The notes: generated from the sequence alone by a model not told the origin. Counted from the first letter of the stretch, positions 34,243 to 55,800 are shown. The stretch is 58,649 bases of DNA from Candidatus Omnitrophota bacterium (GCA_030650425.1 JAUSED010000001.1:1-58649); one strand, 5' to 3'. A program made the numbers and translations.

Positions 34243-34249
34243 GTTTTGT

Positions 34250-34278
34250 ATTATAAACACTTTATCCTATAGGGTCAA
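34250..34278 (-). promoter_or_regulatory. Sigma70-type promoter placed for a leaderless FIST-HK-RR transcript
   Basis: On the minus strand: TTGACC (34278-34273), 17 nt, TATAAT (34255-34250), then 7 nt to the ATG at 34242. Confidence 0.5.
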
Positions 34279-40425: not shown

Positions 40426-40432
40426 AATTTTT

Positions 40433-40777
40433 ATGCGCTTAATTAATCAAACCAAGAATACTATTTTAGCCGAAACTGTTTATTTTGCCGATACTCCTTG
40501 CAAAAGGATCAAAGGATTATTAGGAAGGAAGAATTTCGCTAGCGGAGAAGCCTTAATTATTAAACCCTGTAATGCAGTGCATACCTTTTTTATGCGTTTT
40601 CCCATTGATCTATTGTTTGTAGACAAAACCAACAAAGTGCTCAAGGTAATCTCAAATCTTACACCCTTTCGTCTAAGCCCCGTTTACTTTAGAAGCTGTC
40701 TGGTAGTTGAATTGCCAGCCGGGAGAGCAAAATCCACCTTTACTAGCCAAGGCGACCAGTTAGTTTTTTCCCCTTGA
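40433..40777 (+). CDS. DUF192 (COG1430) family protein
   Basis: ADTPCKRIKGLLGRK..ALIIKPCNAVHTFFMRFPIDLLFVDKTNKV..VVELPAG. The track ORF start (40250) lies inside cpaF in another frame; the ATG at 40433 is used instead. Confidence 0.7.
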   Translation: MRLINQTKNTILAETVYFADTPCKRIKGLLGRKNFASGEALIIKPCNAVHTFFMRFPIDLLFVDKTNKVLKVISNLTPFRLSPVYFRSCLVVELPAGRAKSTFTSQGDQLVFSP

Positions 40778-40852
40778 AATGTCCAATCTAATCCACCTTG
40801 ACAAATCTAGGATCTGTGCTAAGCTAGGATTGAGCTTAGAAATGTCCAATCT
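40777..40852 (+). promoter_or_regulatory. Two copies of the 13-nt motif AAATGTCCAATCT bracketing the promoter of the HTH gene
   Basis: Exact copies at 40777-40789 and 40840-40852. The promoter at 40798-40825 lies between them. Confidence 0.7.
40798..40825 (+). promoter_or_regulatory. Sigma70-type promoter with extended -10
   Basis: TTGACA (40798-40803), 16 nt, TGcTAAGCT (-10 at 40820-40825). Confidence 0.5.
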
Positions 40853-40861
40853 GGAGAACAT

Positions 40862-42820
40862 ATGGGCGCAATCCATAAACTAACATCAGAAGTAAAAGAT
40901 TTTGTCTTAGCGCAAAAGAACTGCAATTCTGCTTTAAGCTGCCGTAAGCTTACTGCCTTAGTCTTGGATAACTTTAAGCTAGAGTTATCCAAATCCAGTG
41001 TGAATGCTATTATCAAAGAAGCAGGGTTAAGCGCGCCTGTGGGGAGGACGCCTAAGAAGAGGCGGCACCGCATAGTGATGCCTAATTTGCCTTTATTGCT
41101 GGATGGATTGGTTAAAGAAGTTTCCAATGACCAGGCAGTGACAGCTCCGTTTATTGATCCATTACTAAAAAAGGCTCAAGAGGAGGCTGAGCAAAAAGCT
41201 AAGCTGGAGGCGCAACAGGAGGAAAAACTTGCGCAAGAAGAGGCTAAACGTAAAACCGAAGAAGAAGCTGCCAAAAAAGCACAAGAAGAGGCGGAGAAAG
41301 AAGCGCTCCGTCGGCAGGAAGAAGAGAGATTAGCCCAGCAGGCCCAAGAAGAAGCCAGGCAAAAAACGCAAGAAGAAGAAATCAGGCGTGCGGCAGAAGA
41401 AGAAGCTGCCAAAAAAGCCGAGGAAGAGAAATGGCTAAGGTTAGCTAAAGAAGAAGCTGATAAAAAAGCTCAAGAAGAAGCGGAAAAAGAAGCGCTCCTT
41501 CGGCAAGAGGGGATGCAGGCCTTGGGTAGCTTAGGTATGGATAGGTTTCCTGAACTGGAAAATACCGGTATAATCTTACTTAGGGCCGCGGATTCTATTA
41601 TTGGGGTAAGTAAATTAATCGTCTCGACGCTTAAGAGCAGGCTTCCCAAACTAGAAGGTAATTTTGAGGGTGTGGTAGAGAATATTATTTATCTTCCTTT
41701 GTTACAGGGGAAAATAGAAAATAGCCTTATAGATAAAGTTTCCGGCGCCTTGGATGAAATAGAAAATATAAAAGTGATGAATTTAGACATTTCGCGGATG
41801 ATAACTTTAGGCCTGCGTGAGGTCCGCTGCGTAAAAGTCATTTTATCCGACGGGTCTAATCTATATCTGGACGCTCAGTTATATTCAGTCTGGTCTTCGC
41901 CGCACGTCCCTTATGACTTTGCTTCTCCTGTCCACGATCTTAAAAGGCGGGTGAATAAATATTTTAACACGGATTCTCCGCTGATCCTTTTTAACGCCCC
42001 GGGTTACGATATTCCTTCTCTGGAATTCCTCAATTTTATGTCTAGCTTTGAAGCTAAAGGAGCGAATATCACTAATCTGGTTTTTTACGGAAACAAATTG
42101 GAAGAGTTGGAAGTTTTGCCCATAGTTCAGGCTAAGAAGCGTTCCTTTATCTTCGCGATATGGCCATGGCAGTTTACCGAGTGCCGTAAGGTTAAAAGTT
42201 TAGGCGAATTCCGGCGTTTTCATCTCGAGGAGGAGAATAAAGATCTATATATAGCGGATATAACCATGGAATTACGGCATATCGGCGCAGGCAAACAGGT
42301 GACCCTATACGGATGCGCGGTAAAACTAAGCCTTACCGAGAAGACCCGCATGGTTGTCCTCAGTAATTTTATTCCCCAAGATAAAAGCTCGGAGGAATTA
42401 ATCACCGCGTATCTTAACCGCTGGCCTAATCCGGATGAGGCTTTTCAGGACTATAGCCGTAAAATCGAGCTTTTTACTTATACTGCCAATTCCCAGCGTT
42501 ATTTTAGCGCAGAAAACCTCAATTTAGGACTGGACCAAGTTTCCAATGCCAGGGACCTATTTAAGGATTATTTAACGGCCTTAGATGCTTATGTGCGTTG
42601 GCATCTTCTGCCAAATGGATACGAAGATAAGGAGTTTAGCTTAACCCGAGAGCGGTTTTATGATTTAGGAACACAGCTAGCGAAAAGCAGCGAAAGCTGT
42701 ACAGCAAGTTTTATTTTACCTTCGGGTTACTCTTTTGGAAAGGACCTAACATATCTTTGCCACCGGGTGAATGAGAGGGAAGTTGTTTTGGAAGGAAAGC
42801 GCTTTCTCCTGCGGCCTTAA
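40862..42820 (+). CDS. HTH protein with E/A/K-rich coiled-coil repeat region and a large C-terminal domain carrying degenerate DDE-transposase-like signatures
   Basis: N-terminus: LSCRKLTALVLDNFKLELSKSSVNAIIKEAGL then GRTPKKRRH (transposase-style HTH). Residues about 105-215: AQEEAEKEALRRQEEE-type repeats. C-terminus: VILSDGSNLYLD, LFNAPGYDIPSLEFLNF, and AYLNRWPNPDEAFQDYSRK, which resembles the Y-x2-R-W..E..F..K tail of IS4-like transposases. By eye only. Confidence 0.45.
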   Translation: MGAIHKLTSEVKDFVLAQKNCNSALSCRKLTALVLDNFKLELSKSSVNAIIKEAGLSAPVGRTPKKRRHRIVMPNLPLLLDGLVKEVSNDQAVTAPFIDPLLKKAQEEAEQKAKLEAQQEEKLAQEEAKRKTEEEAAKKAQEEAEKEALRRQEEERLAQQAQEEARQKTQEEEIRRAAEEEAAKKAEEEKWLRLAKEEADKKAQEEAEKEALLRQEGMQALGSLGMDRFPELENTGIILLRAADSIIGVSKLIVSTLKSRLPKLEGNFEGVVENIIYLPLLQGKIENSLIDKVSGALDEIENIKVMNLDISRMITLGLREVRCVKVILSDGSNLYLDAQLYSVWSSPHVPYDFASPVHDLKRRVNKYFNTDSPLILFNAPGYDIPSLEFLNFMSSFEAKGANITNLVFYGNKLEELEVLPIVQAKKRSFIFAIWPWQFTECRKVKSLGEFRRFHLEEENKDLYIADITMELRHIGAGKQVTLYGCAVKLSLTEKTRMVVLSNFIPQDKSSEELITAYLNRWPNPDEAFQDYSRKIELFTYTANSQRYFSAENLNLGLDQVSNARDLFKDYLTALDAYVRWHLLPNGYEDKEFSLTRERFYDLGTQLAKSSESCTASFILPSGYSFGKDLTYLCHRVNEREVVLEGKRFLLRP

Positions 42821-42825
42821 GAGGA

Positions 42826-42854
42826 TTGACGAGTATTGAGCAAAGTGTTATATT
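42826..42854 (+). promoter_or_regulatory. Sigma70-type promoter with extended -10 for the pilin array
   Basis: TTGACG (42826-42831), 17 nt, TGtTATATT (-10 at 42849-42854). Confidence 0.6.
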
Positions 42855-42871
42855 TTAATAGAGGTATTATT

Positions 42872-43051
42872 ATGGAGGGAAAGAAAGGGGAAAGCCGCGG
42901 TTATCTTAATGGCCAGAGCTTAGTAGAGTATTTTATCCTTTTTGCTATTCTGGCGGGTTTATCTTTGTTTCTGCTTTCGCCGCAAAATCCTAAAAATATT
43001 CCGGCTATGTTTAGCAGTTATGTTTCAACAGCCACGGAAAAAATGAAATGA
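42872..43051 (+). CDS. Flp-type prepilin-like protein 1
   Basis: G/QSLVEY followed by the hydrophobic helix FILFAILAGLSLFLL. Start moved to the ATG at 42872 because the track start lies inside the promoter. Confidence 0.65.
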   Translation: MEGKKGESRGYLNGQSLVEYFILFAILAGLSLFLLSPQNPKNIPAMFSSYVSTATEKMK

Positions 43052-43245
43052 AGATAGATAATAACAAGGCCCAGAACGTGTTAGAATATACGATGCTGAT
43101 CATTATCGCTGCCGCGGCATTGGTAGCGATGACTACCTATATTATGCGTTCGATGAACGCCCGGATTATGCAGACGAATGACGAACTGAATTATTACCGG
43201 CTGGAAGATACAGCTAAAGCAGATGTGGCGAGTCAAATAAAATAA
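43048..43245 (+). CDS. Flp-type prepilin-like protein 2
   Basis: A/QNVLEY then TMLIIIAAAALVAMTTYI. Overlaps the stop of pilin 1. Confidence 0.6.
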   Translation: MKIDNNKAQNVLEYTMLIIIAAAALVAMTTYIMRSMNARIMQTNDELNYYRLEDTAKADVASQIK

Positions 43246-43259
43246 CGGGAGGAAACGAG

Positions 43260-43430
43260 ATGAAAAGATTAAACAGAGGGCAGAGCACGTTAGAGTATGT
43301 GATTATTTTGGCTGCCGTGGTCGGCGCCATCATTCTTGTCGCGACTACAGTGCTTAAACCAAAGCTTCAGACCTCTTACACTGATCTTACCGGTAAGATG
43401 CAAGACAAGGTAAAAGAGGTTAATTTTTAA
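43260..43430 (+). CDS. Flp-type prepilin 3 (56 aa, absent from the ORF track); candidate major pilin
   Basis: My translation: MKRLNRGQSTLEYVIILAAVVGAIILVATTVLKPKLQTSYTDLTGKMQDKVKEVNF. GGGAGG lies 8 nt upstream. Canonical G/XXXXEY and classic Flp size. Confidence 0.8.
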   Translation: MKRLNRGQSTLEYVIILAAVVGAIILVATTVLKPKLQTSYTDLTGKMQDKVKEVNF

Positions 43431-43444
43431 TAGAGGAGGAGAAA

Positions 43445-43783
43445 ATGTGGAAAATAAATAAGAAAGGCCAGAGCACCGCGGAATACGCCATCGTTATAGG
43501 TTTGGTTGTTGCCGCGATAGTGGCGATGCAAATCTATGTCAAGCGCGGATTGCAGGGTAAGGTTAAGGACGCGGTAGATTATAAGGATGCAGGTGACACG
43601 GTTACAGGCACGACCACGCAATATGAGCCTTATTATTCCAGTTCTACGATGACTTCTACTAGGGCAGCATCGGAGAAGGCCGAGGTTACTACCGGCGGCG
43701 GAGTGACTAGAACAATCTCAGGGGAAGATATTTCTACGCGCACCGGCAGCCAGACAATCGGGGCGGCGCAGTCGAGCAAGTAA
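43445..43783 (+). CDS. Extended Flp-type prepilin paralog 4 (T/S-rich tail)
   Basis: KGQSTAEYAIVIGLVVAAIVAMQIYVKRGLQGKVKD. Strong RBS GAGGAGGAG. Confidence 0.75.
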   Translation: MWKINKKGQSTAEYAIVIGLVVAAIVAMQIYVKRGLQGKVKDAVDYKDAGDTVTGTTTQYEPYYSSSTMTSTRAASEKAEVTTGGGVTRTISGEDISTRTGSQTIGAAQSSK

Positions 43784-43799
43784 GTTAAGGAGGAGAGTT

Positions 43800-44105
43800 A
43801 TGTCTAAACGAAATTTACGCGGACAAAGCACGTTGGAGTATGTAATTTTAGCCGGGTTCGTGGTAGCGGCGCTGATTGCCATGGGTGTGTATATGAAGAG
43901 GGGTTTTCAGGGCAGGTTAAGGGAATCTACAGATCAGGTTGGGCAGCAATATTCTGCCGAGCATACTACTTCAACCTACACTACGAGGACCGATGTAGCG
44001 CAAACCGAAACGTTGAATGCCTCAGGCATCACTACGACTAATATTACCAAAAATACGCAGAGTAGAACCGGCAGTGAAAAAGTCGAAGGTTTAAGTGCGA
44101 AATAA
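43800..44105 (+). CDS. Extended Flp-type prepilin paralog 5
   Basis: RGQSTLEYVILAGFVVAALIAMGVYMKRGFQGRLRE. RBS AAGGAGGAG. Confidence 0.75.
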   Translation: MSKRNLRGQSTLEYVILAGFVVAALIAMGVYMKRGFQGRLRESTDQVGQQYSAEHTTSTYTTRTDVAQTETLNASGITTTNITKNTQSRTGSEKVEGLSAK

Positions 44106-44118
44106 TCAGGCGGTAAAG

Positions 44119-44472
44119 ATGCGCCGGGGACAATCCACCTTAGAATATATCTTTTTTATCGCTATGCTGGCAGCCGCGTTGATCGCGATGTTGGTTTATA
44201 TGAAACGCGGGTTTGAGGGAAACTGGCGGCAGCTTTCAGAGCAGGTTGGCGCTGGAAGCTATGACCCAAAAAACACCACGATCAACAATACGGAAACCAA
44301 GCACACCGAAGCCAAGGTTACCTCTTCTTCTACCAGCACAGTTACTTTTGGCGCTGACGGCAGCTCAACCACCATTGATACCAGCGCGAATACTGAAACT
44401 GGCAGAGCTACCGTGGATCGCTCAACAAGCGAGAGCGTGGGAAATTTGTCCGGCGACACTTGGCACAATTAA
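44119..44472 (+). CDS. Extended Flp-type prepilin paralog 6
   Basis: MRRGQSTLEYIFFIAMLAAALIAMLVYMKRGFEGNWRQ. The ATG at 44119 is preferred over the GTG at 44095. Confidence 0.7.
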   Translation: MRRGQSTLEYIFFIAMLAAALIAMLVYMKRGFEGNWRQLSEQVGAGSYDPKNTTINNTETKHTEAKVTSSSTSTVTFGADGSSTTIDTSANTETGRATVDRSTSESVGNLSGDTWHN

Positions 44473-44473
44473 A

Positions 44474-44809
44474 ATGAGAAGCATGTTTACCAAAAAAGGG
44501 CAGAATCTGACCGAGATAGCCTTACTTATTGGCATAGTAGGGTTAGTTTTAATCGGAATGGAGGTGTATGCCCGGCGTGGAATTCAGGGCAAAGTTAAAG
44601 ACCTTACCGATAACATGCTCGGTAAGGAGCAGGCAACTTATCAACAGGATACCTCAGGCTTGGCAGTGAATACGTCGGAGAGTTCATTTGTTTCTAGTTC
44701 AACAGCGACAATCTCTGAAAGGCCGGGTGGTTCAAAAGCAGTGTTCATTCCTAATGAACACTCAGAGACGAGCTATACCTATGAAAGCAGCAGTTCCTTA
44801 GCCAAGTAG
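44474..44809 (+). CDS. Extended Flp-type prepilin paralog 7
   Basis: KGQNLTEIALLIGIVGLVLIGMEVYARRGIQGKVKD. This is the 3' part of track ORF 44213-44809; the upstream part overlaps paralog 6 out of frame. Confidence 0.7.
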   Translation: MRSMFTKKGQNLTEIALLIGIVGLVLIGMEVYARRGIQGKVKDLTDNMLGKEQATYQQDTSGLAVNTSESSFVSSSTATISERPGGSKAVFIPNEHSETSYTYESSSSLAK

Positions 44810-44821
44810 CGAGGTAAAAAA

Positions 44822-45481
44822 ATGTTAGTCAACAGGAAGGCCCAGACGATCACGGAGTTGGCGGTATTAGGCTCGTTGATTATTGTGGCTTTTGCTTTCT
44901 TAATTAATTACAGCGAAAAAATTAACCGTCAGCAGGCTTATCTCCAGCAAACCTTTCGGCTGGCGTTAAAGGAAGCCAAGAATGCCAATAATTCCGCGTC
45001 TTATAATAAGGTTGTCTTTAACCGGATGCCCAATGTATCTAATCCGATGGAGCTGGGCCAAGTGCAGTCTTTTAGTAATAGTTCTAATGTTTTGTGGGCA
45101 GATGGAAAGAACAGGAATCCCGACGGCACGCCAAAGGATGGTGTATCCAAATACCAGCTTAATGAGGCCTCTGCGATAGATGTGCCGATAACCAAAAGCC
45201 AAAACCCGCCGGCTAGCGGAACAACTGCAACCAGTACGAATACTTTTACTAACACCGTAAATACCACGACTACTTTTGTGAAAAATGAAACTCCCGGTGG
45301 AATAATTACTACCACCAAGACCCTCAATGCCACAGATACCTTAGATGCCACTGTAACCGTTGGCACTAACCCACAGACTTTTACGCATAAGTTAGGGGGT
45401 GGTTCTCTAGAGGAAGGAGGAGGAGGTAAGTATTATCCGGACAATTCAAAGACTTTGGAGCGCACAAGGAGTATGCAATAA
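44822..45481 (+). CDS. TadE/TadF-like pseudopilin
   Basis: RKAQTITELAVLGSLIIVAFAFLI N-terminus. T/N-rich C-terminal part. Confidence 0.55.
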   Translation: MLVNRKAQTITELAVLGSLIIVAFAFLINYSEKINRQQAYLQQTFRLALKEAKNANNSASYNKVVFNRMPNVSNPMELGQVQSFSNSSNVLWADGKNRNPDGTPKDGVSKYQLNEASAIDVPITKSQNPPASGTTATSTNTFTNTVNTTTTFVKNETPGGIITTTKTLNATDTLDATVTVGTNPQTFTHKLGGGSLEEGGGGKYYPDNSKTLERTRSMQ

Positions 45482-46395
45482 TGCGGGCAATGACGCGAGG
45501 CCAGGCAACGCTGGAATTTACGCTAGTCTTTATAGTAATGGCAGTGTTGCTGATAGGTTTACTGAGTTTGTGGAAGTGGTCTAGCGATAACATTGTTAAG
45601 CGTCAGCTAAGCTATAATGCCAGCCGAGCGCAGGAAGGTTCGCGTTCGGCTGGTTTATCGCAAGGTACCGCCGCGCTCCCTGCGTTGACAGATAAAGATA
45701 AACAGTCTCTCTTAGATACTCTGCAAGCGGAGTCTGATTCTTTCCCATCGTTGTCTTTAGATCAGCTAACTGCTGATTTAGAAAGGACGGATAAGGCTAT
45801 CCAAGATCTGCAAGCCAGCCTGTCTACTCTGGTAGGCTTCAGGGATGGTTGGCAAAAGGATTTTGAAGATGCCCAACAGGCAGAGGCGGACAGCCAACAA
45901 AAAATCGATGCCTTAAAGGCTCAGATAGCCTCGCTTGAAGAGCAAAAACTAAATCCGCAAACAGCAGGTTATGATGAATCCGGGCAGCTGATCTATGTAG
46001 ATTATGACGGGCAAATTAATGCGTTGAATCAAGAAATAGCCAAAACCCAAAACGGCTATTACACTATTGAAACCACCTCTTGGAATGAGAGTGGTCCTAC
46101 AACGGTCGCTACTTATGACTACTCTAATACGCAATGGATGAGTAGATTTGGCACAAGGGAGGAATGGGCCAAGGATTATTCGATCTACCATCAGTACGGG
46201 GCTTCCGAAGGAAGCGCTACCGGGCTGTATGCCAATTATACTCCCGGCCTGCTTGACTGGCAGGCAAGGAAAGATTACGCCCAGCAGCAAAGAGATACTT
46301 TTCAATCTAGCGTAACTAGCACCGCAAGCGTCTTATCTGGGATGCAAGATATGCAGAGTAAGCTTCAGAAAGCGAAGGAGAGTAAGTCCCAGTAA
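45481..46395 (+). CDS. TadE-like pseudopilin with coiled-coil extension
   Basis: RGQATLEFTLVFIVMAVLLIGLL (TadE-type motif), followed by a Q/E/A-rich coiled coil. Confidence 0.6.
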   Translation: MRAMTRGQATLEFTLVFIVMAVLLIGLLSLWKWSSDNIVKRQLSYNASRAQEGSRSAGLSQGTAALPALTDKDKQSLLDTLQAESDSFPSLSLDQLTADLERTDKAIQDLQASLSTLVGFRDGWQKDFEDAQQAEADSQQKIDALKAQIASLEEQKLNPQTAGYDESGQLIYVDYDGQINALNQEIAKTQNGYYTIETTSWNESGPTTVATYDYSNTQWMSRFGTREEWAKDYSIYHQYGASEGSATGLYANYTPGLLDWQARKDYAQQQRDTFQSSVTSTASVLSGMQDMQSKLQKAKESKSQ

Positions 46396-46406
46396 TAGGG
46401 GATAGT

Positions 46407-46460
46407 AGTAGGGGACATTTTCCTACACGCGTTTACTAGCTGTTGGAAAGTGTCCCCTAC
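46407..46460. repeat. REP-B-related element between the pseudopilin genes
   Basis: AGTAGGGGACATTTTCCTACACGCGTTTACTAGC..GGAAAGTGTCCCCTAC. Confidence 0.8.
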
Positions 46461-46485
46461 TTGCCCTACTTGAAACGGAGGCAAT

Positions 46486-48102
46486 TTGTTTTTTTTCTGG
46501 TTCACAAAAAATAAGCAGTTTAGCCAAAGAAGCAATCTCTCAGGCCAGATTGTTCCTTTTTTGCTGGTGGTTTTAGTCATTCTGCTGGTTGCTGCTGTTG
46601 CTACTATTAACATTGGCAGGGTTTCTTTGGATAAGACCTGCTCGGCAAATGCCGCGGATGCCGGCGCGCTTGCCGCTGCTTCGGCCTGGGCCTCGGCGTT
46701 TAATACGCTCACCGAAATCAACGGGGATCCGACACCAGGAGGCTTGGAGTATAGTTATGATCTGAATTATTCTGCTTATACCCTACTTAAGGCTGAGGCA
46801 GACCAACATTTAAAAGAAGCAATGAAGAAGGCTGAAGAAGCCAGCGCATACGCAGCCGCAGCGCTTGGGAGTGGGAGCGTATTGCCGGGAAGCGTATTAC
46901 CAGAAAAAGATCTGCCAGATTGTATCTCTATTTGGTATAGAGGTATAGCAGCTGCTACTGCGGATAGCCTGGGTGCTTTGGCTGCCCTTGACGCTTCTAT
47001 CGCAACGAAGGCTTTTGGTATGACTATTCAATATATGCAGTCACTGACAGATTCTTTTTATGAGCAGCAACAGAAGACTTTTTGCGATGCAGTAGCCTTT
47101 ATGGACAGTTCTTATATTGACGCCCGCAAAACCGGGCTAACTTATGCTTTTAATAACAGCTGTATACCGAATAAGCTTTCCGAGAGCCAAACTGACGCGT
47201 TTAGCATTTGGGGGGGTTCAGAAACCGCTTATGGCAAGGAGGGCGACTCTTTTTTTGGAACTGAGTATAAGCTTGATGATGAAGGCAGGTATACCAGAAA
47301 ATGCGAATGGAAGGATAAATTAAACCAAACGCATATTGTTAATGCCAAACTGGATTTACCCAAAATAACCTCTTATGAACTTCAGCATACTCAGGGTAAT
47401 TATTCGCAGATCAGCGCTCTATTAGACGATTTGATCAGCGATTCGCAGTCAATTTCCGACAAGTTAAATAGTACTGCGGGTGTCTTGGGCGCAACAGCAG
47501 CCGCGTATATAGCTACTTTTGTAGCTAGTATAGTTGCCTTTGCAGCTTCTTTTTGTAAAGATTCATATCCATATAATTGTTTTCCTGCATGGATGGCTGC
47601 GTGTAAAGTGACTTGGTGGTTGTATGATGGCGCGCATTTATCCCAAAGCGTTATAGTCGCTGGGCTTACAATTATTCTTGGAGTTGTGGCAGCAGTTTCC
47701 TTGGGTTCACTAAAATCCGATAATAATACAGCCTATGATTATTGGGGTCCGGATGGGAACCAATCCCTTGCCACTTGTCTTACCTGCGCGCCTTGTAAGA
47801 GTGACGCGCCTGAGCATTGTAAACCTTGCTGGGAGGCGAAAGACCTGATGATTAAGAAGATTAACGACGTAATCTTAACTAAAGACGCAAGCTGGCCTAC
47901 CAAAGACTGGACTACTCTTTGCACAACAACCCAGAAGCATCCCGGAACAAGCTCAGGTATTATTTTGGCTACTGAATATCCGGAGATAACCAGCAGCAGC
48001 CGGGCGAAATTTGATGTTGGAAATAGGGATGCTGGAGATGAGGGTAGAGACGTGGGTGACTATAACGATACTTATGACGCGAGCATAGTGCATACGAACT
48101 AG
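46486..48102 (+). CDS. TadG-like protein (Tad_N-type N-terminus, Cys-rich C-terminal region)
   Basis: SGQIVPFLLVVLVILLVAAVATINIGRVSLDKTCSANAADAGALAAASA matches the TadG N-terminal pattern. TTG start 5 nt after GGAGG. C-terminal CLTCAPCKSDAPEHCKPC. Confidence 0.6.
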   Translation: MFFFWFTKNKQFSQRSNLSGQIVPFLLVVLVILLVAAVATINIGRVSLDKTCSANAADAGALAAASAWASAFNTLTEINGDPTPGGLEYSYDLNYSAYTLLKAEADQHLKEAMKKAEEASAYAAAALGSGSVLPGSVLPEKDLPDCISIWYRGIAAATADSLGALAALDASIATKAFGMTIQYMQSLTDSFYEQQQKTFCDAVAFMDSSYIDARKTGLTYAFNNSCIPNKLSESQTDAFSIWGGSETAYGKEGDSFFGTEYKLDDEGRYTRKCEWKDKLNQTHIVNAKLDLPKITSYELQHTQGNYSQISALLDDLISDSQSISDKLNSTAGVLGATAAAYIATFVASIVAFAASFCKDSYPYNCFPAWMAACKVTWWLYDGAHLSQSVIVAGLTIILGVVAAVSLGSLKSDNNTAYDYWGPDGNQSLATCLTCAPCKSDAPEHCKPCWEAKDLMIKKINDVILTKDASWPTKDWTTLCTTTQKHPGTSSGIILATEYPEITSSSRAKFDVGNRDAGDEGRDVGDYNDTYDASIVHTN

Positions 48103-48110
48103 TGAAAAAA

Positions 48111-48151
48111 GAAAAGGTGACAGTCACGCATTTCGTGACTGTCACCTTTTC
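48111..48151 (+). terminator. Long palindromic hairpin (about 17-bp stem)
   Basis: GAAAAGGTGACAGTCACG-CATT-CGTGACTGTCACCTTTTC. Confidence 0.5.
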
Positions 48152-48167
48152 CTGAAAAGGAGATGCG

Positions 48168-48938
48168 ATGAAAAAAATTATCTGCACAATTTTATTTTTT
48201 GCATTTGTGTCTTTTGGTTCCTTAACTTGGGCCGCTGAATCAGACTTACCTTTGCCCGCTAACGCTGTCAAGACTACGGAACAGAGTATGAATATTGGGC
48301 CTATTCCAAGCGTTACGCAAACTTACGAAACCTCTCTGAATAACAACGATAAGATAAGCGCATTTTATAGTAAGGCGTTAGCGCGCCTTGGTTGGCGTGA
48401 AGAAAGCAGAGGGTTTTTCTTAAAAGATGATTATATGGTTCTGATTGTCGTTTTTCCGCGTAAGGGCAAAGATATCAAGACGCGGTTTTCTATCACCACC
48501 AGTAGGATACCGACTAAAGAAGAAATATTGGCGCAGCGCAAAACTAAACCGGACAAGTTAGATTTTATGCCGATTTATCCCGGGAGTGAACAGGTTTTTC
48601 TTTGGGATATGCCGACAGGTCTTTCCGCTTCCTACGAAACAAAAAGCGATATAAAAGATGTGGTTTTCTTTTACAAATCTGGTATGCTTAATTATGGCTG
48701 GAGCTTGAGCAGTGAAGCGCCGATAACTACAGAAGCAGTTAATTGTCCGGAGTGCCTTAAAGCGCTGGTTCAGCTTCCTAAAGATGCGATTAAGCCTGTT
48801 ACCCCGGATACCTCTAGTAAAGCGAGCCTCATCTTTCGCAAAGGGAGCGGAGAGAGCTGTACCATAAGGCTTTATCAGAGTATGGATAAAACCACAATTT
48901 TAGTCACTTATAATGCGAATAAAAAAATTAACCTATAA
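48168..48938 (+). CDS. Exported hypothetical protein with an internal two-module duplication
   Basis: Signal peptide FFAFVSFGSLTWA-AE. Repeated pattern (..ISAFYSKALARLGWREES.. and ..VVFFYKSGMLNYGWSLSSE..). Confidence 0.5.
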   Translation: MKKIICTILFFAFVSFGSLTWAAESDLPLPANAVKTTEQSMNIGPIPSVTQTYETSLNNNDKISAFYSKALARLGWREESRGFFLKDDYMVLIVVFPRKGKDIKTRFSITTSRIPTKEEILAQRKTKPDKLDFMPIYPGSEQVFLWDMPTGLSASYETKSDIKDVVFFYKSGMLNYGWSLSSEAPITTEAVNCPECLKALVQLPKDAIKPVTPDTSSKASLIFRKGSGESCTIRLYQSMDKTTILVTYNANKKINL

Positions 48939-49206
48939 TGAAAAAGGGGACGGTTCTATTTTCAAGATTGGTAGGGGAGGTTTAAACCTCCCCTACCCTA
49001 GAAAAATAGAACCGTCTCATTTTTTCGCTAAAGCTCAGTCGATTCTAGAATATATAACCATCATTGCCGTGATTGCCGCTGTGTTTATCGCGATGGGAGC
49101 GTATTATAAAAGGAGCCTGCAGGCCCGTTACCGTCAAGCGGGGGATGTCTTAGGCGGCGGAGAACAATATACTCCTGTTGCTAACGCGCCGACATTAGGT
49201 AAGTAA
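48913..49206 (+). CDS. Flp-type prepilin paralog 8 with a palindromic repeat inside its leader-coding region (start uncertain; possible pseudogene)
   Basis: AKAQSILEYITIIAVIAAVFIAMGAYYKRSLQARYRQ is clearly paralogous to pilins 4-7. The only in-frame canonical start upstream is the ATG at 48913, so the leader would read through repeat 48947-49017. Confidence 0.5.
   Translation: MRIKKLTYNEKGDGSIFKIGRGGLNLPYPRKIEPSHFFAKAQSILEYITIIAVIAAVFIAMGAYYKRSLQARYRQAGDVLGGGEQYTPVANAPTLGK
48947..49017. repeat. Nested palindromic element
   Basis: GGGACGGTTCTATTTT..GTAGGGGAGGTTTAAACCTCCCCTAC..AAAATAGAACCGTCTC. Confidence 0.8.
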
Positions 49207-49214
49207 AACAAAAG

Positions 49215-50060
49215 ATGATTATAATAATTAGTCTTTTCATTATCCTTTCCGTAGTTTTAATTGCCTGGAGCGCCTTTCCTCTCTTTTTGAAGCCGATAGA
49301 AAGCTGGCGGCAGGAAAAAGAAGCCAAGGTCGCTCAACAGATGGATCAGATGTTTTATGATAAGAGCCCCAAGGCGATTGTCCGGCTCTATTTTATTCTT
49401 CCGATTCTCTTTGGCGCGGCAGGATATTTTATTCTCCAGTCTTATATCCCAGTGGTTATCGGGATTGTTTTAGGTCTAGCCATACCTAACTTAATCTTAA
49501 AGATACGTTTAGCCCGCCGGAAACAGAAATTTAATGATCAGCTTTTGGATACTATTACCATGCTCTCCAGCTGTTTAAAAGGCGGTTTAAGTCTTTTACA
49601 GGGATTTGAGGTTTTGGTAGAAGAGATGCCCGCGCCGATGAATCAGGAACTTGGCTTATTGCTTAAGGAGAACAAAATGGGTGTGCCCTTTGAAGAGAGC
49701 TTGGTTCGCTTAAATAAAAGGATGGATATCGAAGAACTGGGGTTGGTAGTCAACGCGCTCTTAGTTTCCCGGGAGACCGGCGGAGAGCTGACCAAGGTCT
49801 TTAGCCGCCTGACCACGACGATTAGGGATAACCGTAAGCTCAAAGAAAGCATTAAGACCTTGACTATGCAGGGAAGATTACAGGGCGCGATTATGTCGCT
49901 CCTTCCGATTTTGTTTGTTATTTGGGTACTTTCAGTGGACAAGCATCATTTTGATATCATGCTGACCAGCGATATAGGCAGGATGCTTTTGGTGTTGGCG
50001 GTGGTATTACAGGTGGTGGGGATGTTTTTAATCCGTAAATTTAGCATAATCAAGATTTAA
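49215..50060 (+). CDS. tadB: Tad inner-membrane platform protein TadB (T2SS-F family)
   Basis: QLLDTITMLSSCLKGGLSLLQGFEVLVEEMPAPMNQELGLL, with flanking TM segments. Confidence 0.8.
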   Translation: MIIIISLFIILSVVLIAWSAFPLFLKPIESWRQEKEAKVAQQMDQMFYDKSPKAIVRLYFILPILFGAAGYFILQSYIPVVIGIVLGLAIPNLILKIRLARRKQKFNDQLLDTITMLSSCLKGGLSLLQGFEVLVEEMPAPMNQELGLLLKENKMGVPFEESLVRLNKRMDIEELGLVVNALLVSRETGGELTKVFSRLTTTIRDNRKLKESIKTLTMQGRLQGAIMSLLPILFVIWVLSVDKHHFDIMLTSDIGRMLLVLAVVLQVVGMFLIRKFSIIKI

Positions 50061-50062
50061 AT

Positions 50063-50920
50063 ATGGATATACTGATTTATCTTTTAATCATTCTGGCGTT
50101 GGGCCTGATTGTTTGGAGTTTAGTCCTCTCCCAACAAGGCAGGAGCACGCGTCTTCCCCCGTTAAACGTTAACCTTAAGCGGACCAGGCCGCATATTCTT
50201 TTATCAAGCATTCTTCCGACGAGAGGTTTGCTTGAGAAAACAGGTATCTTTGCCAGAATAAAAAGAAAAATCGACGCGGGGCATTTAAATATCAGCCCGG
50301 AGGGATTCTTTAATTTAAAAATATTGATTATGGCGGTTTTAGCCGCGCTTACGCCGGTTGCCTTGGGCAAGGTTGATCCCATATATATATTGGTTGCTTT
50401 AGTTATCGGGTATATCGCCCCGGAATTTTATCTAAGACAAAGGATTGCCAAACGTAAGTATCAAATCGTCCGTCGGCTTCCGGAGACAGTGGATCTTTTA
50501 GGCCTTTGCATCGAAGCCGGCCTGGATTTTTCCAGTGCCGTCAGGTGGGTGATTGATAAGACCCCTCCAACTCCCATTAATGAGGAGTTTAGCCTTGTTT
50601 TAGAAGAGATCAAATGGGGTAAGCCGCGCATTCAAGCCTTAAAAGACATGTCCAGCAGGCTAGATATACCTGAAGTAAGTTCTTTTGTGCAAACGATTAT
50701 TCAGGCTGAGCGGATGGGTTCTCCGGTTGCCGAGGTCTTTACTATTCTTTCCGAGGATGTCCGGCTGCAAAGGTTTCACCGCGGAGAAAGAATCGCGCTA
50801 CAGGCGCCGATCAAGATACTCCTGCCGCTTATTTTCTTCATTATGCCGGTAATCGGTATCATTATCGGCGGCCCGATCTTCCTGCAATTCACCATGGGCA
50901 AAATGATCCCCGGTTTCTAA
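50063..50920 (+). CDS. tadC: Tad inner-membrane platform protein TadC (T2SS-F family)
   Basis: RRLPETVDLLGLCIEAGLDFSSAVRWV..IKWGKPRIQALKDM, with TM segments at both ends. Confidence 0.8.
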   Translation: MDILIYLLIILALGLIVWSLVLSQQGRSTRLPPLNVNLKRTRPHILLSSILPTRGLLEKTGIFARIKRKIDAGHLNISPEGFFNLKILIMAVLAALTPVALGKVDPIYILVALVIGYIAPEFYLRQRIAKRKYQIVRRLPETVDLLGLCIEAGLDFSSAVRWVIDKTPPTPINEEFSLVLEEIKWGKPRIQALKDMSSRLDIPEVSSFVQTIIQAERMGSPVAEVFTILSEDVRLQRFHRGERIALQAPIKILLPLIFFIMPVIGIIIGGPIFLQFTMGKMIPGF

Positions 50921-50922
50921 TT

Positions 50923-51005
50923 CCCGTGTAGGGGACACTTTCCGTCAGGGTTCTTACTAAACTACTAAAGGAAAGTGTCCCCTACACGCGGGAAACTGTC
51001 CCCCC
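50923..51005. repeat. REP-B element
   Basis: CCCGTGTAGGGGACACTTTCCGTCAGGG...GGAAAGTGTCCCCTACACGCGGG plus GAAACTGTCCCCC. Confidence 0.85.
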
Positions 51006-51028
51006 TGCCTATCTGGTTATTATTTAAT

Positions 51029-51056
51029 TTGGTATTTGTGATAATATTGCTATAAT
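51029..51056 (+). promoter_or_regulatory. Sigma70-type promoter with extended -10, near-leaderless for the porin gene
   Basis: TTGGTA (51029-51034), 16 nt, TGcTATAAT (-10 at 51051-51056). 9 nt to the ATG at 51066, no SD. Confidence 0.45.
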
Positions 51057-51065
51057 ACTGATTTA

Positions 51066-52235
51066 ATGATTACCCGTTGGATTATTCGCTCAAGCCTTTC
51101 TTTAATAATCCTAGCTCTATCTTCCCCTTCATTATCTGCCGCACCCACAGCCTTAGAAATAGCCGCGCAATTTAATAAATCCAGAGAAGGTTTTGCCAAT
51201 AAATACGGGACGCGGTTTGCCTTTCTTTTTAATTACACCCAGCAGCTCATTTTGAAAAGCAGCTCAGAAAAAGGAAAGAGCGGCGGCGTTGGGTATGGGA
51301 ACTTAGAGTTGGCCCAGAGGCTTTGGCAGGGCGCGGAGTTATTCGCGGAATTTGAAGTGGACCGGGGTAAAGGAGTGGATAAGTTTTTGCCTACCTTCTC
51401 GGGCTTGAATGACAACTCAGGGGAGGATGCCAATCTTTACCTCCCTGTTTTATATATGGACCAAAAACTTTTTGATGAGAAAATATTAATCGGCGCCGGA
51501 AAATTGGATTTATCCTATTGGTTTGATGGTAATGAAGCGGCGAACTCCGCGGATACACAATTTCTATCCAGCGCTTTAGTGAATAGTTTAACTCTTCCTT
51601 TTCCGTCCAAGGGAATAGGCGCGATGGCAAGCTTCGAGCCCTGCGAGTGGGTCTATTTTCAGACAGGGGTAGCTACAGCCAAGGCAAAGTCCACTAAAAC
51701 AGGATTACCTGACGCTTTTAATAGCGCGTTTGTTCTTAATGAATTGGGTTTTACCCCGAAGATTGGGAAATTGCAAGGGAACTACCGTTTTATTTTTAAT
51801 CTCAATCATGAAAAGTTAGAATACGTTAATAAGAGCGATGAAAGCAAAAAAAATGATTTTGGTTTCGCTGTAAGTTTTGATCAGGCGATTACTAAGCGCA
51901 TAACTTTATTTTTGCGCTATGGTTTGGCTGATCCGAAAGTAAGAGACATTGAACATTACTGGTCCTGCGGAGGCCAGCTATCCCAACCTATACCCGGCCG
52001 TAAACTTGACATTCTGGGAATAGGCATAGCCCAATCTATTTTTGGCGATGATTTTCGCGAAGCAAACGGAGAAGATACAGCCAGCCGCGAAACTATTTAC
52101 GAAGCCTACTACAGTTACAATGTAAATGACGCCATCGCCCTAACCCCGAGTATCCAGATAGTCACTGATCCCAATGGCGATAAAACAGCCGAAACTGCAA
52201 TTGTCTGCGGCCTTAGATTTCTTCTTAGTTTTTAG
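51066..52235 (+). CDS. OprB-like carbohydrate-selective porin
   Basis: Signal peptide. LWQGAELFAEFEV..NLYLPVLYMDQKLFDEKILIGAGKLDLSYWFD..DTQFLSSALVNS follows the OprB family pattern as I remember it. C-terminal F (..RFLLSF). Confidence 0.55.
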   Translation: MITRWIIRSSLSLIILALSSPSLSAAPTALEIAAQFNKSREGFANKYGTRFAFLFNYTQQLILKSSSEKGKSGGVGYGNLELAQRLWQGAELFAEFEVDRGKGVDKFLPTFSGLNDNSGEDANLYLPVLYMDQKLFDEKILIGAGKLDLSYWFDGNEAANSADTQFLSSALVNSLTLPFPSKGIGAMASFEPCEWVYFQTGVATAKAKSTKTGLPDAFNSAFVLNELGFTPKIGKLQGNYRFIFNLNHEKLEYVNKSDESKKNDFGFAVSFDQAITKRITLFLRYGLADPKVRDIEHYWSCGGQLSQPIPGRKLDILGIGIAQSIFGDDFREANGEDTASRETIYEAYYSYNVNDAIALTPSIQIVTDPNGDKTAETAIVCGLRFLLSF

Positions 52236-52241
52236 CCAAAA

Positions 52242-52361
52242 TAATGTCCAATCTCGCTCAGGGGACACTTTCCTTTTGAGGCTTTTATTAGAGTCCTGAC
52301 GGAAAGTGTCCCCTACTGTTGAGCACAGAAATGTCCAATCTGCCTAATAAATGTCCAATCT
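52242..52361 (+). promoter_or_regulatory. Three copies of the 13-nt motif (T/A)AATGTCCAATCT
   Basis: 52242-52254 (TAATGTCCAATCT), 52329-52341 and 52349-52361 (both AAATGTCCAATCT). Confidence 0.7.
52259..52316. repeat. REP-B element (inverted relative to 30483-30538)
   Basis: CAGGGGACACTTTCCTTTTGAGGCTTTTATTAGAGTCCTGACGGAAAGTGTCCCCTAC. Confidence 0.85.
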
Positions 52362-52407
52362 GGATACTCTTGTAAAATGCACTACTTCGGGCCTTCCTCA
52401 GAATGTA

Positions 52408-52515
52408 AAAGGGGACACTTACCTTTGCGTCAGAAAGGGACATTTTCCTTTTGAAGTTCTAGTGAGAGCCATGACGGAAAGTGTCCCTTTCTGCAGAGGT
52501 TGGAAAGTGTCCCCT
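52408..52515. repeat. Cluster of degenerate REP-B units
   Basis: AAAGGGGACACTTACC..AGGGACATTTTCCTTTTGAAG..GACGGAAAGTGTCCC..TGGAAAGTGTCCCCTG. Confidence 0.75.
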
Positions 52516-52575
52516 GACTGCTTGAGCGCCTTTTTCCTGATAAGAAAGCGCTACCAAAATGACCTCATTTTCTAC

Positions 52576-52603
52576 TTGACAGCGACGAGCTACGTGTTAT
52601 ACT
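52576..52603 (+). promoter_or_regulatory. Strong sigma70-type promoter with extended -10, about 290 nt upstream of the giant ORF
   Basis: TTGACA (52576-52581), 16 nt, TGtTATACT (-10 at 52598-52603). Confidence 0.6.
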
Positions 52604-52892
52604 TAGAATGTAATCGATGGAAAGGAACGAAATGGCAAACCCAGAGCAATCTGGAGGCGCAAAGCCACGGGTCCTCGATAATTTAAAGCAACGATTTTCA
52701 CAGGATAGCCGGGCTGCCGAATTACCGACGAGGAATTTGACAGTTCGGTTTTTTATTTGTAAGTTTAGTAAGGCATTTTACAAACTCTTTATAAAACAAA
52801 TATGAAAGATTCTCACACGCAATTTGAAAAAGTGCTGGGGGTAAGGGGGAGATTATATTCAATTTCTTTTTCATATAGTAATATAAAATAAA

Positions 52893-55800
52893 ATGATAAA
52901 GCCTAAGATTCAGACAGAAGACAGGGTAGCTGCCAAAAAAGAATCCAAGGAAAAGTTCCATTCCAGCTTTAAGACTTGGATCCGTGTGGTGGCTTTTATC
53001 GTAGCCGCGGTCTTCTTGCCCGAGCAAGTGGCCCAAGCCGTAGAGTATGACTGGCGCGTGCTCTGGAATAAGCCAGCCATCGGCCTTCCTTCCAACAACG
53101 TTTTTAGCCCGAATTACCTTAAAAATGTCCAATCTGTGAATATTCCTCAAGCAGTAAAAAGTATCCTCAAAGATATAGCTAATAAGCCCATAACCGCCAT
53201 CAAAATTTCAGATAATCTGACCATCAATTTGAATAAGCCCTTGAAAATGTCCAATCAGAGGATAGATGAGCTTTATAATTGGCTCTTAGGCAAACCTTGC
53301 GGTTCCAAGGCACTTTATGACTATTTGAATTACAAGGGAATTCAGGTTGAAGAGCAGGACATTGCGGTTTTAGCCCTGACTATAGATATTTTGAATGATG
53401 TGGTCAAGCCGGAAGGTAACCCTAAAGTAATTAAAAATTCCCTTTATGCCTTGTCCAGGACTTCAGCATTCTTCGGCGCCAAGCTTTATCCTGTATCATT
53501 GCGTGATTGCTTCGTCGGGCTTCGCCCTCCTCGCAATGACGAATCCGGTGTCATTGCGAGCGAGCCCACAGGCGAGCGAAGCAATCTCTTAAGCAGCCTA
53601 GTTCCTTTCATCGCTCACCTCAACGGCGACCACTATGTTTTAGTAACCCGTATAAGCGAAGATAAAATTTATTTTAGCGATCAGCACAGAGAAGAGTTTT
53701 TACCCATAGATAAATTTCTTAAAGAATTCTCCGGTTATGCTTTAGTTACTTCCAAAGATTTACCGCCAATTTCGGATAACGAAGCTAAAACTATTTTAGG
53801 CGCAAAATCCGATTACTCCTCTGATTGGCATCCTTCCGCGTCTAACGCCCAGATGCAGGCATATTCCAATAAGACGATGGAGAGCTTGCATAGTGAAATC
53901 AAAGCTATGCGCACCCATGCCGAACATCAATTTATCAAGGATATTACTATCAGCGTAGGAAGTTCCTTTGCTATGGCTGCTATATCCAGCTATGCCAAGC
54001 CTTGGTTTAACACCAAATCTACCGGAGTCGGCTCTAAGGTTTTAGGTTTAGGCCCTACTGCCAGATGGGCGATCACCGGAGCGGTTGCCGGAACTGCGGT
54101 ACACGGCCTGACCACCGGGCAATGGTTTAAAGGCAATTGGTATCTTTACACTGCTGGAGGTGCGGCAGCAGGAGCGGCAGTGCCTTCTGTAGCGCAAGCT
54201 TGGAATACACAGGGTTCATGGCTTTCTCCGGTTAGGAAAGCCACTGATTCTTTTAAGAGTTCTATTAATGGTGCTTTTGGAGGAACGCCTGATCTTGCGC
54301 AATCACCTTGGGAATTTCCGCGCCCGAGCCTTGGCACAACGGCACAACTGGATGTTACAGCCCCGGGTTTATTTAGTAACCTCGGGGGTGTGGGCCATGG
54401 TATGTTTAATGCCGGAGTAGTTACGCTCACCTCGAATATATTTTCATTAGCCGGAATGAAGCCACAACAAACAGAGTTACTTTCCGCATTTACTAGCGGC
54501 GCATTATTGGGGATGGTCGGCGGGCTGGGAAATATGACCAATGGCCTGCAATGGTATCAGGCAGGCATCAGCGGAGGCCTTTCTAATTTAACCAGCACTT
54601 ATGTTACTAGCTTAGCCACAGAGCAATTAAGCATCAAGAGCCCTGCTCTGGCTAAGTTTATTGGTGATACCGCAGGCCTAGCTACCAGTGTCCTTGTTAA
54701 TGGGGCCTTCTATTCTCTGAATGGCCAGTCCATAGATATGGCCAGTCCTAAAATTAAAATTGGTTTACCAGCTGATTTAGGAACCGGTGATAAGATCTTG
54801 AAGGCAGGCATTGGAACCTATGGCGAGTATATCTGGAATAATAGCTGGCGAGGGTGGACTGCAAGTTTAGTTGGCAACGGAGTAGCCGAGATAATTACCC
54901 GGAATCCTAAGCTTATCGGCCTAACGGCTAAAGACCTTGAGACTATGCCCTATGCCAGCGCTATCGGACAGGGGATTACCAGCGGTTTTGGTTCAGCATT
55001 TAAAAATGATACGTTCATCCAGAGTATTTCTAAGGGCCTATTAACCAGCGCCTTGACCATCGGTGAAGCCAAGATAGAAGCTGATATGCTCAAACATAAC
55101 CCCCGGATGACCCCGGTTATGTCCGCGTATTTAATTGATGCCGGCACCGCCGCATTCAGAGGTTTTATGGAAGGTTTTCTTTCTCCTACGGTAACCGAAA
55201 GTATCCGCAATCAGAAATTAGATATCAACAACCAGACCTTTGAACCCGATTCCGCGGCCATAGGGTTTTTTACGCGCACTTTTAACGCGTTAGAAACGGA
55301 TGGTTTAAACGCTTCTAGTTTTGGATATACAGGCCGTGAGCTAAGCGCGTTTGGAGAAATATCCTATATGCATACTTTGACTGCTACTTTTGGGCCGACG
55401 ACTCCAGAGATACTTAGGCAGCAAATGGCTAAGGGTGCGTTTCAGGGAACAGCAGTAGGTGAAGGTTCTACGGTAAATGTAGCCTTAAGCGATGGCACGT
55501 TGGTGCCGCTTACGCTTTCTGATGCTTCCAAGTCAAATCTAAATGGTTCTACCATAATTCCTTTCATGGGGACACAGCCGCGCAAAGATCTTACGTACAC
55601 AGATATAGGCGGTAATAAATGGACGAGTAACGGTGACGGCACATATGCATTACAATCCGTGAAGAAGCAAGAGGGGAGTTTTATCGCCGGATGGGCCCAG
55701 ATCGCCCATGATAGTTACCAGTCTGGCGCGGTAAGAAATATGGTAGGGACAATCGCGGTTATACCTGCTGCCCGCGAATTCTTACATTTGCCGGTTAGCT

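Follow-up and report, generated by a model that had tools for sequence, protein, structure and literature searches.

Our analyses of a 58,649-nucleotide (nt) stretch of DNA from a Candidatus Omnitrophota bacterium (GCA_030650425.1, JAUSED010000001.1:1-58649; hereafter the window) revealed that a 13-nt asymmetric motif, AAATGTCCAATCT, here called the box, recurs at a Tad/Flp pilus locus and at a giant open reading frame (ORF) downstream of it, and that ~100 related Omnitrophota loci carry the box at the same four places. Two of these lie on either side of the promoter of an unannotated gene of the Tad locus, here called X; the third, ahead of the promoter of the giant gene, is an array of three boxes, and the fourth is within the 5′ part of the giant ORF itself. 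The motif is almost certainly a conserved and functional nucleic-acid element of the Omnitrophota. These are uncultivated, probably predatory or parasitic nanobacteria whose hallmarks are Tad pili and giant ORFs for very large proteins, with 39,678 aa reached in V. archaeovorus, and the function and control of the giant ORFs have been described as poorly understood (PMC10066038). The Omnitrophota literature searched for riboswitch, motif, and promoter, that study included, describes no regulatory element at Tad or giant loci, and a literature search for the motif, the X family, and domesticated bacterial regulators of IS4 type returned nothing relevant; the motif appears to be undescribed. Through the box, the Tad locus and the giant genes would for the first time be connected by a concrete regulatory link that is open to testing, made up of a 13-bp site, a named candidate regulator, and cyclic diguanosine monophosphate (c-di-GMP) as a second input. 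What we propose is a conserved operator system with a possibly transposase-derived regulator and a codon-level imprint on the giant gene.

A pattern search of the window located exact copies of AAATGTCCAATCT at 40777, 40840, 52329, 52349, and 53123 and one-mismatch copies at 52242 (TAAT..) and 53245 (..TCA), all on the + strand. This reproduces exactly the list given in an initial annotation of this DNA, which had counted seven + strand copies, five of them exact and two with one mismatch, within 40777-53257. There were no further matches with up to two mismatches in the window. Dinucleotide-preserving shuffles gave a mean of 2.0 and a maximum of 6 copies, and none of the 100 shuffles reached 7. 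The 9-mer core ATGTCCAAT occurs eight times in the window compared to 0.46 expected; its eighth match, at 56085, is compatible with chance, as had been suspected. A chance or composition artifact for the motif as a whole is ruled out by the shuffles together with the conservation described below. The copies occupy two places only, one at the X promoter and the other comprising the gap that precedes the giant ORF and the first 365 nt of that ORF. A further resemblance pointed out earlier, the sequence CCCTTGAAA shared upstream of two of the copies, is real, but it is shifted by one base with respect to the box and relatives do not keep it, so that we regard it as coincidental. Read in reverse complement, the box includes TGGACA, a −35-like hexamer, which accounts for antisense promoter-like matches; these we consider incidental.

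Relatives were assembled in three sets. Exact-protein look-ups of X and TadC homologs yielded 11 independent loci, a profile scan yielded 80 species-level genome loci (1.22 Mb), and a scan with the array pattern (~20 specified bases) yielded 117 metagenome stretches, more than half of which are unrelated satellite repeats. The array pattern was used in place of a single 14-mer, for which a scan of the public collection gave at least 120 matches by chance. Twelve loci (298 kb) contain 38 exact cores (TGTCCAATC), every one of them on the gene strand, and 37 of the 38 belong to the four site classes. Across the 80 genome loci, the core has 100 gene-strand and 12 opposite-strand matches, with 4.7 expected per strand. 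Relaxed forms of the box in the same 80 loci number 106 on the + strand and 5 on the − strand between −500 and 0 from the X start, and 80 and 7, respectively, between +9.5 and +12.5 kb; any other 500-nt bin holds 0 to 2 on each strand. The clustering at two offsets from the X start shows that the motif is not a common dispersed repeat, and relatives keep the box at the orthologous sites. A repetitive extragenic palindromic (REP) sequence, a REP doublet forming a hairpin (REPIN), or a miniature inverted-repeat transposable element was likewise rejected, as the box is asymmetric and confined to two zones in 1.2 Mb; the REP-like family of the window is formed by separate GGGGACACTTTCC hairpins, not by the box. 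Attachment (att) sites or other direct repeats bounding an island were rejected as well, there being at least seven copies, the same gene order in all relatives, and no empty sites.

The box has the asymmetric logo W-A-W-T-GTCCA-A-T-C-T-(G/A). No conserved bases follow it on the 3′ side in the arrays, and some sites are extended into the palindrome GTCCANNCTGGAC. At X, one box lies just upstream of the −35 element and another at about +5 to +20, so that the promoter is bracketed, and the geometry in ~60 species reads box-N3-10-TTGACA-N17-TATAnT-N~12-box-GGAGG-N5-ATG. The upstream box, (T/C)GTCCAATCT, is found 3 to 10 nt before TTGACA-N17-TATAnT in ~40 species. The downstream box, AAATGTCCAA(T/A)CTGGAGG-N5-ATG, is invariant in nearly all of ~75 loci, and the rest of the intergenic region diverges. 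The spacing from the upstream to the downstream box is 52 to 54 or 63 to 64 nt. In the window, the copies at 40777 and 40840 indeed flank a promoter, as the initial annotation had it, and TTGACA-16-TAAGCT can be read there, although this promoter scores below the threshold of a consensus scan and was read from the sequence. Four relatives carry an inverted box, ATTGGACAT, within the −35/−10 spacer of the X promoter (loci L182, L189, L193, and L206). A small ORF was also considered at this site (the box holds an ATG, and those at 40779 and 40842 are in frame, MSNL...); with box spacings of 52, 53, 54, or 63 nt in relatives there is no conserved reading frame, and the small ORF was therefore rejected.

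At the giant gene, relatives have three direct boxes (consensus TTGTCCAWTCT) at spacings of 28 to 31 and 20 to 22 nt, located about 150 to 250 bp upstream of the giant-gene promoter. The spacing of 87 nt between array boxes 1 and 2 of the window equals the ancestral ~31 nt plus the insertion of a REP-like hairpin at 52257-52317, and this hairpin is not part of the box system. Hairpins of this kind (GGGGACA(C/T)TTTCC...GGAAAGTGTCCCC) are REP-like and intergenic and occur in the window at 46407-46461, 50925-50988, 52257-52317, and 52407-52518; Y1_Tnp genes, similar to those of REP-associated tyrosine transposases, are nearby in relatives (L006, 11017-11211; L008, 124-609). In L011, a tandem array of ~37-nt units (GGGAATGGTCGTTTGGTAGCCTTCCTCATAAGGGGTA-like) at ~11030-11400 (the same region as L174) takes up the space between the box array and the giant-gene promoter. 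The giant-gene promoter of the window, downstream of three copies of the box as first described, is TTGACA-16-TATACT at 52576-52603. It is preceded by a conserved GAAAGCG(C/T)TACCAAAA, and the arrangement is kept in all relatives. In ~48 metagenome contigs, array box 1 is followed 190 to 312 nt later by the promoter element AAGCGTTACCAAAA/TTGACA-16-TATACT; a c-di-GMP riboswitch core comes ~110 nt past that element, and the coding box is at about +880 to +980. Rfam family RF03167 or RF01051 was found at the same position of the giant-gene leader in seven of seven relatives, and in L007 and L008 the aptamer is followed by a terminator hairpin. The conservation of the riboswitch in the leader thus puts the giant gene under c-di-GMP control. 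A sensor module adjoining the Tad locus, composed of a FIST sensor, a HisKA/HATPase histidine kinase, and a GGDEF response regulator, is conserved in the same position in L002 and L004 and could plausibly supply the c-di-GMP that the riboswitch would sense. In two relatives, L007 and L008, the array is preceded by a gene of opposite orientation, and there is only one strong + strand promoter, located downstream of the array.

The boxes inside the giant ORF show that the constraint is on nucleotides. Giant-gene orthologs are 3256 to 8441 aa or longer, and every relative with this region has ATG TCC AAT CA(G/A) ~331 to 355 nt into the ORF. Most relatives have a second coding box, TCGTCCAATCTGAC (TCG TCC AAT CTG AC), 39 nt upstream of this one (coding box 2); in the window and in L005, the second coding box is 122 nt upstream of coding box 2 and in a different frame. 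The statement in the initial annotation that the two intragenic copies of the window are read in different frames was borne out (K-N-V-Q-S and K-M-S-N-Q). For a codon test, a protein pattern allowing any codon, KP[LIVM]x[MLIV][STA][NKDSQ]Q..., was run over all loci, which gave 34 distinct nucleotide versions. The in-box Ser codon was TCC in 34 of 34, and the in-box Asn codon was AAT in 31 of 31, the remaining three versions having AAA, a Lys codon. The flanking codons were mixed: Pro was encoded by CCT (15), CCA (10), CCC (7), and CCG (2); Lys by AAG (22) and AAA (12); Ile by ATT (20), ATA (10), and ATC (4); and Glu by GAG (18) and GAA (16). Frozen in-box codons, together with boxes in different frames, thus place the constraint on the nucleotides and not on the amino acids. 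Protein-level conservation of the coding copy is ruled out on these grounds, and the earlier proposal that the motif is conserved at the nucleic-acid level is strongly confirmed by codon usage and by the differing frames among relatives. Among genomes with a drifted X-promoter box (GTCCAAACT), the giant gene is visible in two, L145 and L149; their coding box is ATGTCCAAACA, at the cost of an Asn-to-Lys change. This co-drift, a single evolutionary event, suggests that one trans-acting reader may serve both sites.

The placement of the boxes points to duplex DNA, given that boxes lie upstream of the −35 element, inverted copies are present in promoter spacers, spacings fall near multiples of 10.5 nt, and some arrays are intergenic between divergent genes. 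The spacing peaks among relatives are at 21, 30 to 31, 52 to 54, and 63 to 64 nt, with the qualification that orthologous sites enter these statistics as non-independent observations. Judged by these sequence patterns, the box probably acts as a protein-binding DNA site. An RNA-level role, one of the candidates initially listed, would have the box work as a single-stranded element in the X 5′ untranslated region (UTR) and in the giant-gene mRNA, where a protein or small RNA would bind it to control translation or stability. Consistent with such a role, the copies are almost all in sense orientation, those in the giant ORF are bound to be part of the mRNA, and the downstream X box accounts for most of the ~30-nt 5′ UTR and in nearly all loci runs straight into the ribosome-binding site; moreover, UCCA..UGGA can form a 4-bp hairpin that takes in part of the ribosome-binding site. 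However, the upstream box of ~40 species is outside the X transcript, the promoter spacer of four species contains an inverted box, and the arrays are 150 to 250 bp upstream of their promoter, those of L007 and L008 being in divergent intergenic regions with no strong upstream promoter. In addition, four folded copies had no common structure (z from −0.9 to +0.9), and Rfam had no match at the boxes, only at the neighboring c-di-GMP riboswitch. We therefore disfavor the RNA-level role and regard it as unlikely.

The same strict sense orientation could also be read in terms of the ops/JUMPStart elements of RfaH, which are short, conserved, orientation-dependent elements at very long surface-structure operons. 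The box would then be a non-template-strand element of a paused complex that recruits a NusG/RfaH-type factor for the very long Tad operon and the giant ORF. Like ops, the box is short (~12 nt) and highly conserved, and it is found in the leader or in the first few hundred nucleotides of very long transcription units. Nevertheless, the upstream boxes and the three-box arrays are upstream of promoters, tandem helically phased arrays are foreign to ops, the box sequence is unlike GGCGGTAGnnTG, and no NusG paralog is encoded in the window or in the loci examined. Of the explanations weighed here, this one seems to us the least probable.

Three-box arrays were also found upstream of other genes. 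In L253 (11196-11260) and L247 (2868-2990), the array precedes a gene for an exoprotein with a TPS domain (TpsA, two-partner secretion) beside a gene for a ShlB-type transporter. In L260 (9325-9385, minus strand), it lies before another ORF, which has LysM and HEAT domains and a length of at least 3053 aa. Arrays before other large exoprotein genes thus fit with a regulon, and their distribution suggests one that may be centered on very large secreted or surface proteins. L328 has boxes at 607-685 and 2934-2998, in the coding sequence of yidC and the 5′ end of parB, which include the perfect palindromes ATGTCCAGACTGGACAT. These boxes encode an inserted SRLD(I/N) peptide that is common only to the closest ParB relatives, and parB/yidC boxes were rejected as a general feature because they are specific to one lineage.

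Gene X encodes the candidate reader of the boxes. The X family is almost confined to Omnitrophota, where it has the same Tad-locus position throughout, between the DUF192 and Flp pilin genes, and at least 80 species have it as a fixed part of that locus, with a single copy per contig. Two genomes have two X copies, bin S2.101 (L142 and L204) and ERP119705_co15_217 (L155 and L178). No Pfam family matched X at threshold, and sequence homology to solved structures or families was limited to low-complexity matches via the E/K-rich helix (TolA and similar); the E/K/R-rich helix is labeled "TolA" in some databases. An AlphaFold2 model of X has a mean predicted local distance difference test (pLDDT) value of 81 for the whole protein and of 92 for the C-terminal 428 residues (predicted template modeling [pTM] score of 0.91). 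From the N terminus, it contains a three-helix helix-turn-helix (HTH; residues 9 to 53), a basic arm (PVGRTPKKRR), a disordered linker, an E/K/R-rich helix of ~120 residues, and an alpha/beta domain of 420 residues. The HTH superposes on the Pax6 paired domain (Foldseek, probability 0.99 over 53 residues), and weak matches to HTH_32, HTH_33, and HTH_Tnp_Tc3_2 were obtained with 16/37, 6/37, and 2/37 members of the X family, respectively. Across ~70 species there is no variation in helix 3 of the HTH (SKSSIN), in the GR-KK arm, or in the GTCCA core of the box.

X is the only protein of the locus with an HTH or other DNA-binding domain, and it is always encoded directly behind the box pair. Because the most invariant box is always on the X promoter, because there is no other candidate, and because a monomeric transposase-type HTH with a minor-groove arm suits an asymmetric, A/T-flanked box, we give X an even chance of being the protein that binds the boxes. 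Of the roles first suggested for the motif, an operator for a shared regulator is the one that the comparative data favor; that the 40862-42820 product, X, is this regulator we infer from its position, the lack of another candidate, and the fit of HTH to box. The boxes might instead be DNA operators for a regulator encoded elsewhere, with X as one target among others. No covariation of X residues (helix 3) with box variants was found, and another, unlinked DNA-binding protein could therefore be the binder; with both helix 3 and GTCCA invariant, there is, however, no covariation to exploit. The arrays of L253, L260, and L328 are far from any X gene, and X has a large non-HTH domain of unassigned role, which would also agree with a regulator other than X. 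Against this stand the presence of the most invariant box on X's own promoter, the classic signature of autoregulation, and the finding that no other DNA-binding gene is conserved in the locus. A regulator encoded elsewhere is thus a minor possibility, with odds similar to those of the RNA-level role.

The large domain of X raises the question of transposition. Tn5 transposase is the sole fold family that Foldseek returned for it, with E values of 4e-4 and 8e-4 and probabilities of 0.95 and 0.84 but with template modeling (TM) scores of only 0.19 to 0.26, and no Pfam DDE family matched X. Residues D337, D383, and E536 are invariant, which would be compatible with a catalytic triad, and D330, E526, and D530 are nearly invariant. 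X could in principle be an active DDE enzyme that rearranges DNA between the box sets and so switches giant-gene or pilus expression. The weak Tn5-transposase fold match, the transposase-type HTH, and these acidic residues would accord with this, as would the multiple direct repeats, since subterminal direct repeats are typical of some transposon ends. We nevertheless consider it very unlikely: no inverted partner box follows X, with only background counts in the bins from +2000 to +3500, every box is a direct repeat, and ~90 loci have the same gene order and box orientation, with no rearranged variant found. X is single-copy and syntenic and is therefore not mobile. The suggestion that the copies are transposase-end relics is thus not supported for their current state (no inverted partner, no mobility, synteny fixed in 80 species), but it may still describe their origin, in view of the transposase-type HTH of X and its weak structural match to Tn5 transposase.

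Several transposases, among them those of IS1, IS911, IS30, and Tn5, bind ends that overlap their own promoters, and Tn7 and Mu have subterminal direct-repeat sites. The X locus resembles these in having a transposase-type HTH near asymmetric direct-repeat sites that bracket the promoter of its own gene, and in the weak Tn5-like match of the C-terminal domain. It differs in that there are no inverted terminal repeats and no mobility, the position is fixed in at least 80 species, and the sites are also present at a distant second gene. Transposon-derived DNA-binding modules have been reused in other regulators: the TldR proteins, which repress flagellin genes, derive from TnpB, and among eukaryotic factors FHY3/FAR1 and the Pax paired domain derive from transposases. 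X would share this kind of reuse, its HTH superposing on Pax6; unlike TldR, which is RNA-guided, X would read DNA directly. We know of no IS4/Tn5-like DDE protein domesticated as a bacterial regulator; should X turn out to bind the boxes, such recruitment of a transposase-like protein to transcriptional control in bacteria would be unusual. In the most far-reaching version of this idea, X would be a domesticated Tn5/IS4-like transposase whose HTH reads former transposon-end boxes and which acts as an architectural regulator, using the long ER/K helix and a synapsis-competent C-terminal domain to bridge its own promoter and the giant-gene region ~11.5 kb away, coupling the expression of Tad pilus and giant adhesin with c-di-GMP signaling and possibly retaining DNA cleavage; we regard this as doubtful, with only a small chance of being right.

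On balance, we lean slightly toward a model in which the box is a ~13-bp asymmetric operator of a regulator shared by the two Tad/giant-gene transcription units, with X as the likeliest binder. X, or another regulator, would occupy the boxes around the σ70-type X promoter, ~5 or 6 helical turns apart. Because these boxes bracket the promoter, a bound protein would clamp or occlude the core promoter, giving autoregulation, be it by repression or by activation. The same protein would occupy the three-box array, with spacings of ~3 and ~2 helical turns, upstream of the riboswitch-controlled promoter, as well as one or two further boxes ~600 bp downstream, inside the ORF, which could permit cooperative binding or looping. 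Looping or cooperativity would then set giant-gene transcription alongside an independent gate, the c-di-GMP-I or c-di-GMP-I-GGC riboswitch. Within X, the homeodomain-like, transposase-type HTH and the basic minor-groove arm would read one asymmetric box with its A/T-rich 5′ flank, and the long ER/K helix would tether the HTH to a possibly Tn5-like domain that could mediate multimerization. Several points weigh against this model. The sense orientation common to all four site classes would also be predicted by an RNA-level or non-template-strand mechanism, and the fixed distance of the downstream X box to the ribosome-binding site could mean translational control. The coding-box pairs, at 39 and 122 nt, are out of helical phase, and in one lineage (L328) boxes lie inside yidC and parB. 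To these can be added the lack of X-box covariation and the low TM-scores of the X large domain; in view of these scores, we treat a Tn5/IS4 origin of X as tentative.

The proposed arrangement can be compared with known multisite regulators. The lac (O1/O2/O3), gal, and deo systems are multi-operator, autoregulated repressor systems, and lac O2 lies at +401 in coding sequence. They share with the box system several copies of a short site around a promoter, an auxiliary site in coding sequence, and spacing suited to looping. The boxes, in contrast, are asymmetric direct repeats and not palindromes, the putative regulator is outside the known repressor families, and the target is a giant ORF with a riboswitch. 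Sites of OmpR/PhoB-type regulators, exemplified by the pho box (CTGTCAT-N4-CTGTCAT), are likewise direct repeats of an asymmetric, TGTC-containing unit upstream of promoters and on one helix face. Here, however, the period is 21 and 30 to 31 nt and not 11, and the locus encodes no DNA-binding response regulator, the adjacent one having a GGDEF output.

The window is a chromosomal segment with housekeeping genes, tRNAs, and 6S RNA, and the features relevant to the box system are collected in Table 1.

Table 1. Boxes, promoters, and neighboring genes of the Tad and giant-gene region (coordinates count from the first nucleotide of the window)
Feature	Coordinates	Strand	Remarks
FIST/histidine kinase/response regulator-GGDEF module	30635-34260	−	Adjoins Tad locus
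Tad/Flp pilus locus with RcpC, secretin, and CpaE-CpaF fusion ATPase	38269-40425 (fusion ATPase)		
DUF192 gene	40250-40777		Upstream of X
Upstream X box	40777-40789	+	Exact copy; overlaps DUF192 stop codon; ends 8 nt before −35
X promoter	40798-40825	+	TTGACA 40798-40803, 16-nt spacer, TAAGCT 40820-40825 preceded by TG
Downstream X box	40840-40852	+	Exact copy; starts ~15 nt after −10; GGAG (ribosome-binding site) directly 3′
Gene X (652 aa)	40862-42820	+	ATG at 40862; unannotated; candidate box binder
Several Flp/TadE-like pilin genes, then TadB and TadC			Downstream of X
OprB porin	51066-52235		
Array box 1 (TAATGTCCAATCT)	52242-52254	+	Orthologous to box 1 of the three-box arrays of relatives
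REP-like hairpin (GGGGACACTTTCC...GGAAAGTGTCCCC)	52257-52317		Between array boxes 1 and 2; repeat families D3, D5, D6, I20
Array box 2	52329-52341	+	Exact copy
Array box 3	52349-52361	+	Exact copy; 20 nt after box 2
Giant-gene promoter (TTGACA-16-TATACT)	52576-52603	+	11/12 consensus matches; preceded by TG
c-di-GMP-I-GGC riboswitch aptamer	52625-52722	+	Rfam RF03167, 59.5 bits vs. gathering score of 59
Giant ORF, 5′ part	52893-58649	+	Open to window end; signal-anchor; Peptidase_C39-like domain (Pfam PF03412)
Coding box 1	53123-53135	+	Exact copy; read K-N-V-Q-S; specific to window lineage and L005
Coding box 2 (AAATGTCCAATCA)	53245-53257	+	Read K-M-S-N-Q; ~350 nt into giant ORF

The Tad ATPase at 38269-40425 combines a ParA/MinD-like (CpaE/TadZ-type) domain and a T2SSE (CpaF) ATPase in one 718-aa protein, and this fusion is kept in relatives. 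Elsewhere in the window, a 6S RNA (RF00013, 75 bits) was identified at 8285-8447, between pheT and a gene for an MgsA-like AAA+ protein. An EF-G-like protein of 1012 aa, encoded at 9751-12789, has an N-terminal extension of ~320 residues ahead of its GTPase domain. The start of the window (226-1207) holds a nucleotidyltransferase/HEPN gene pair that resembles a toxin-antitoxin module.

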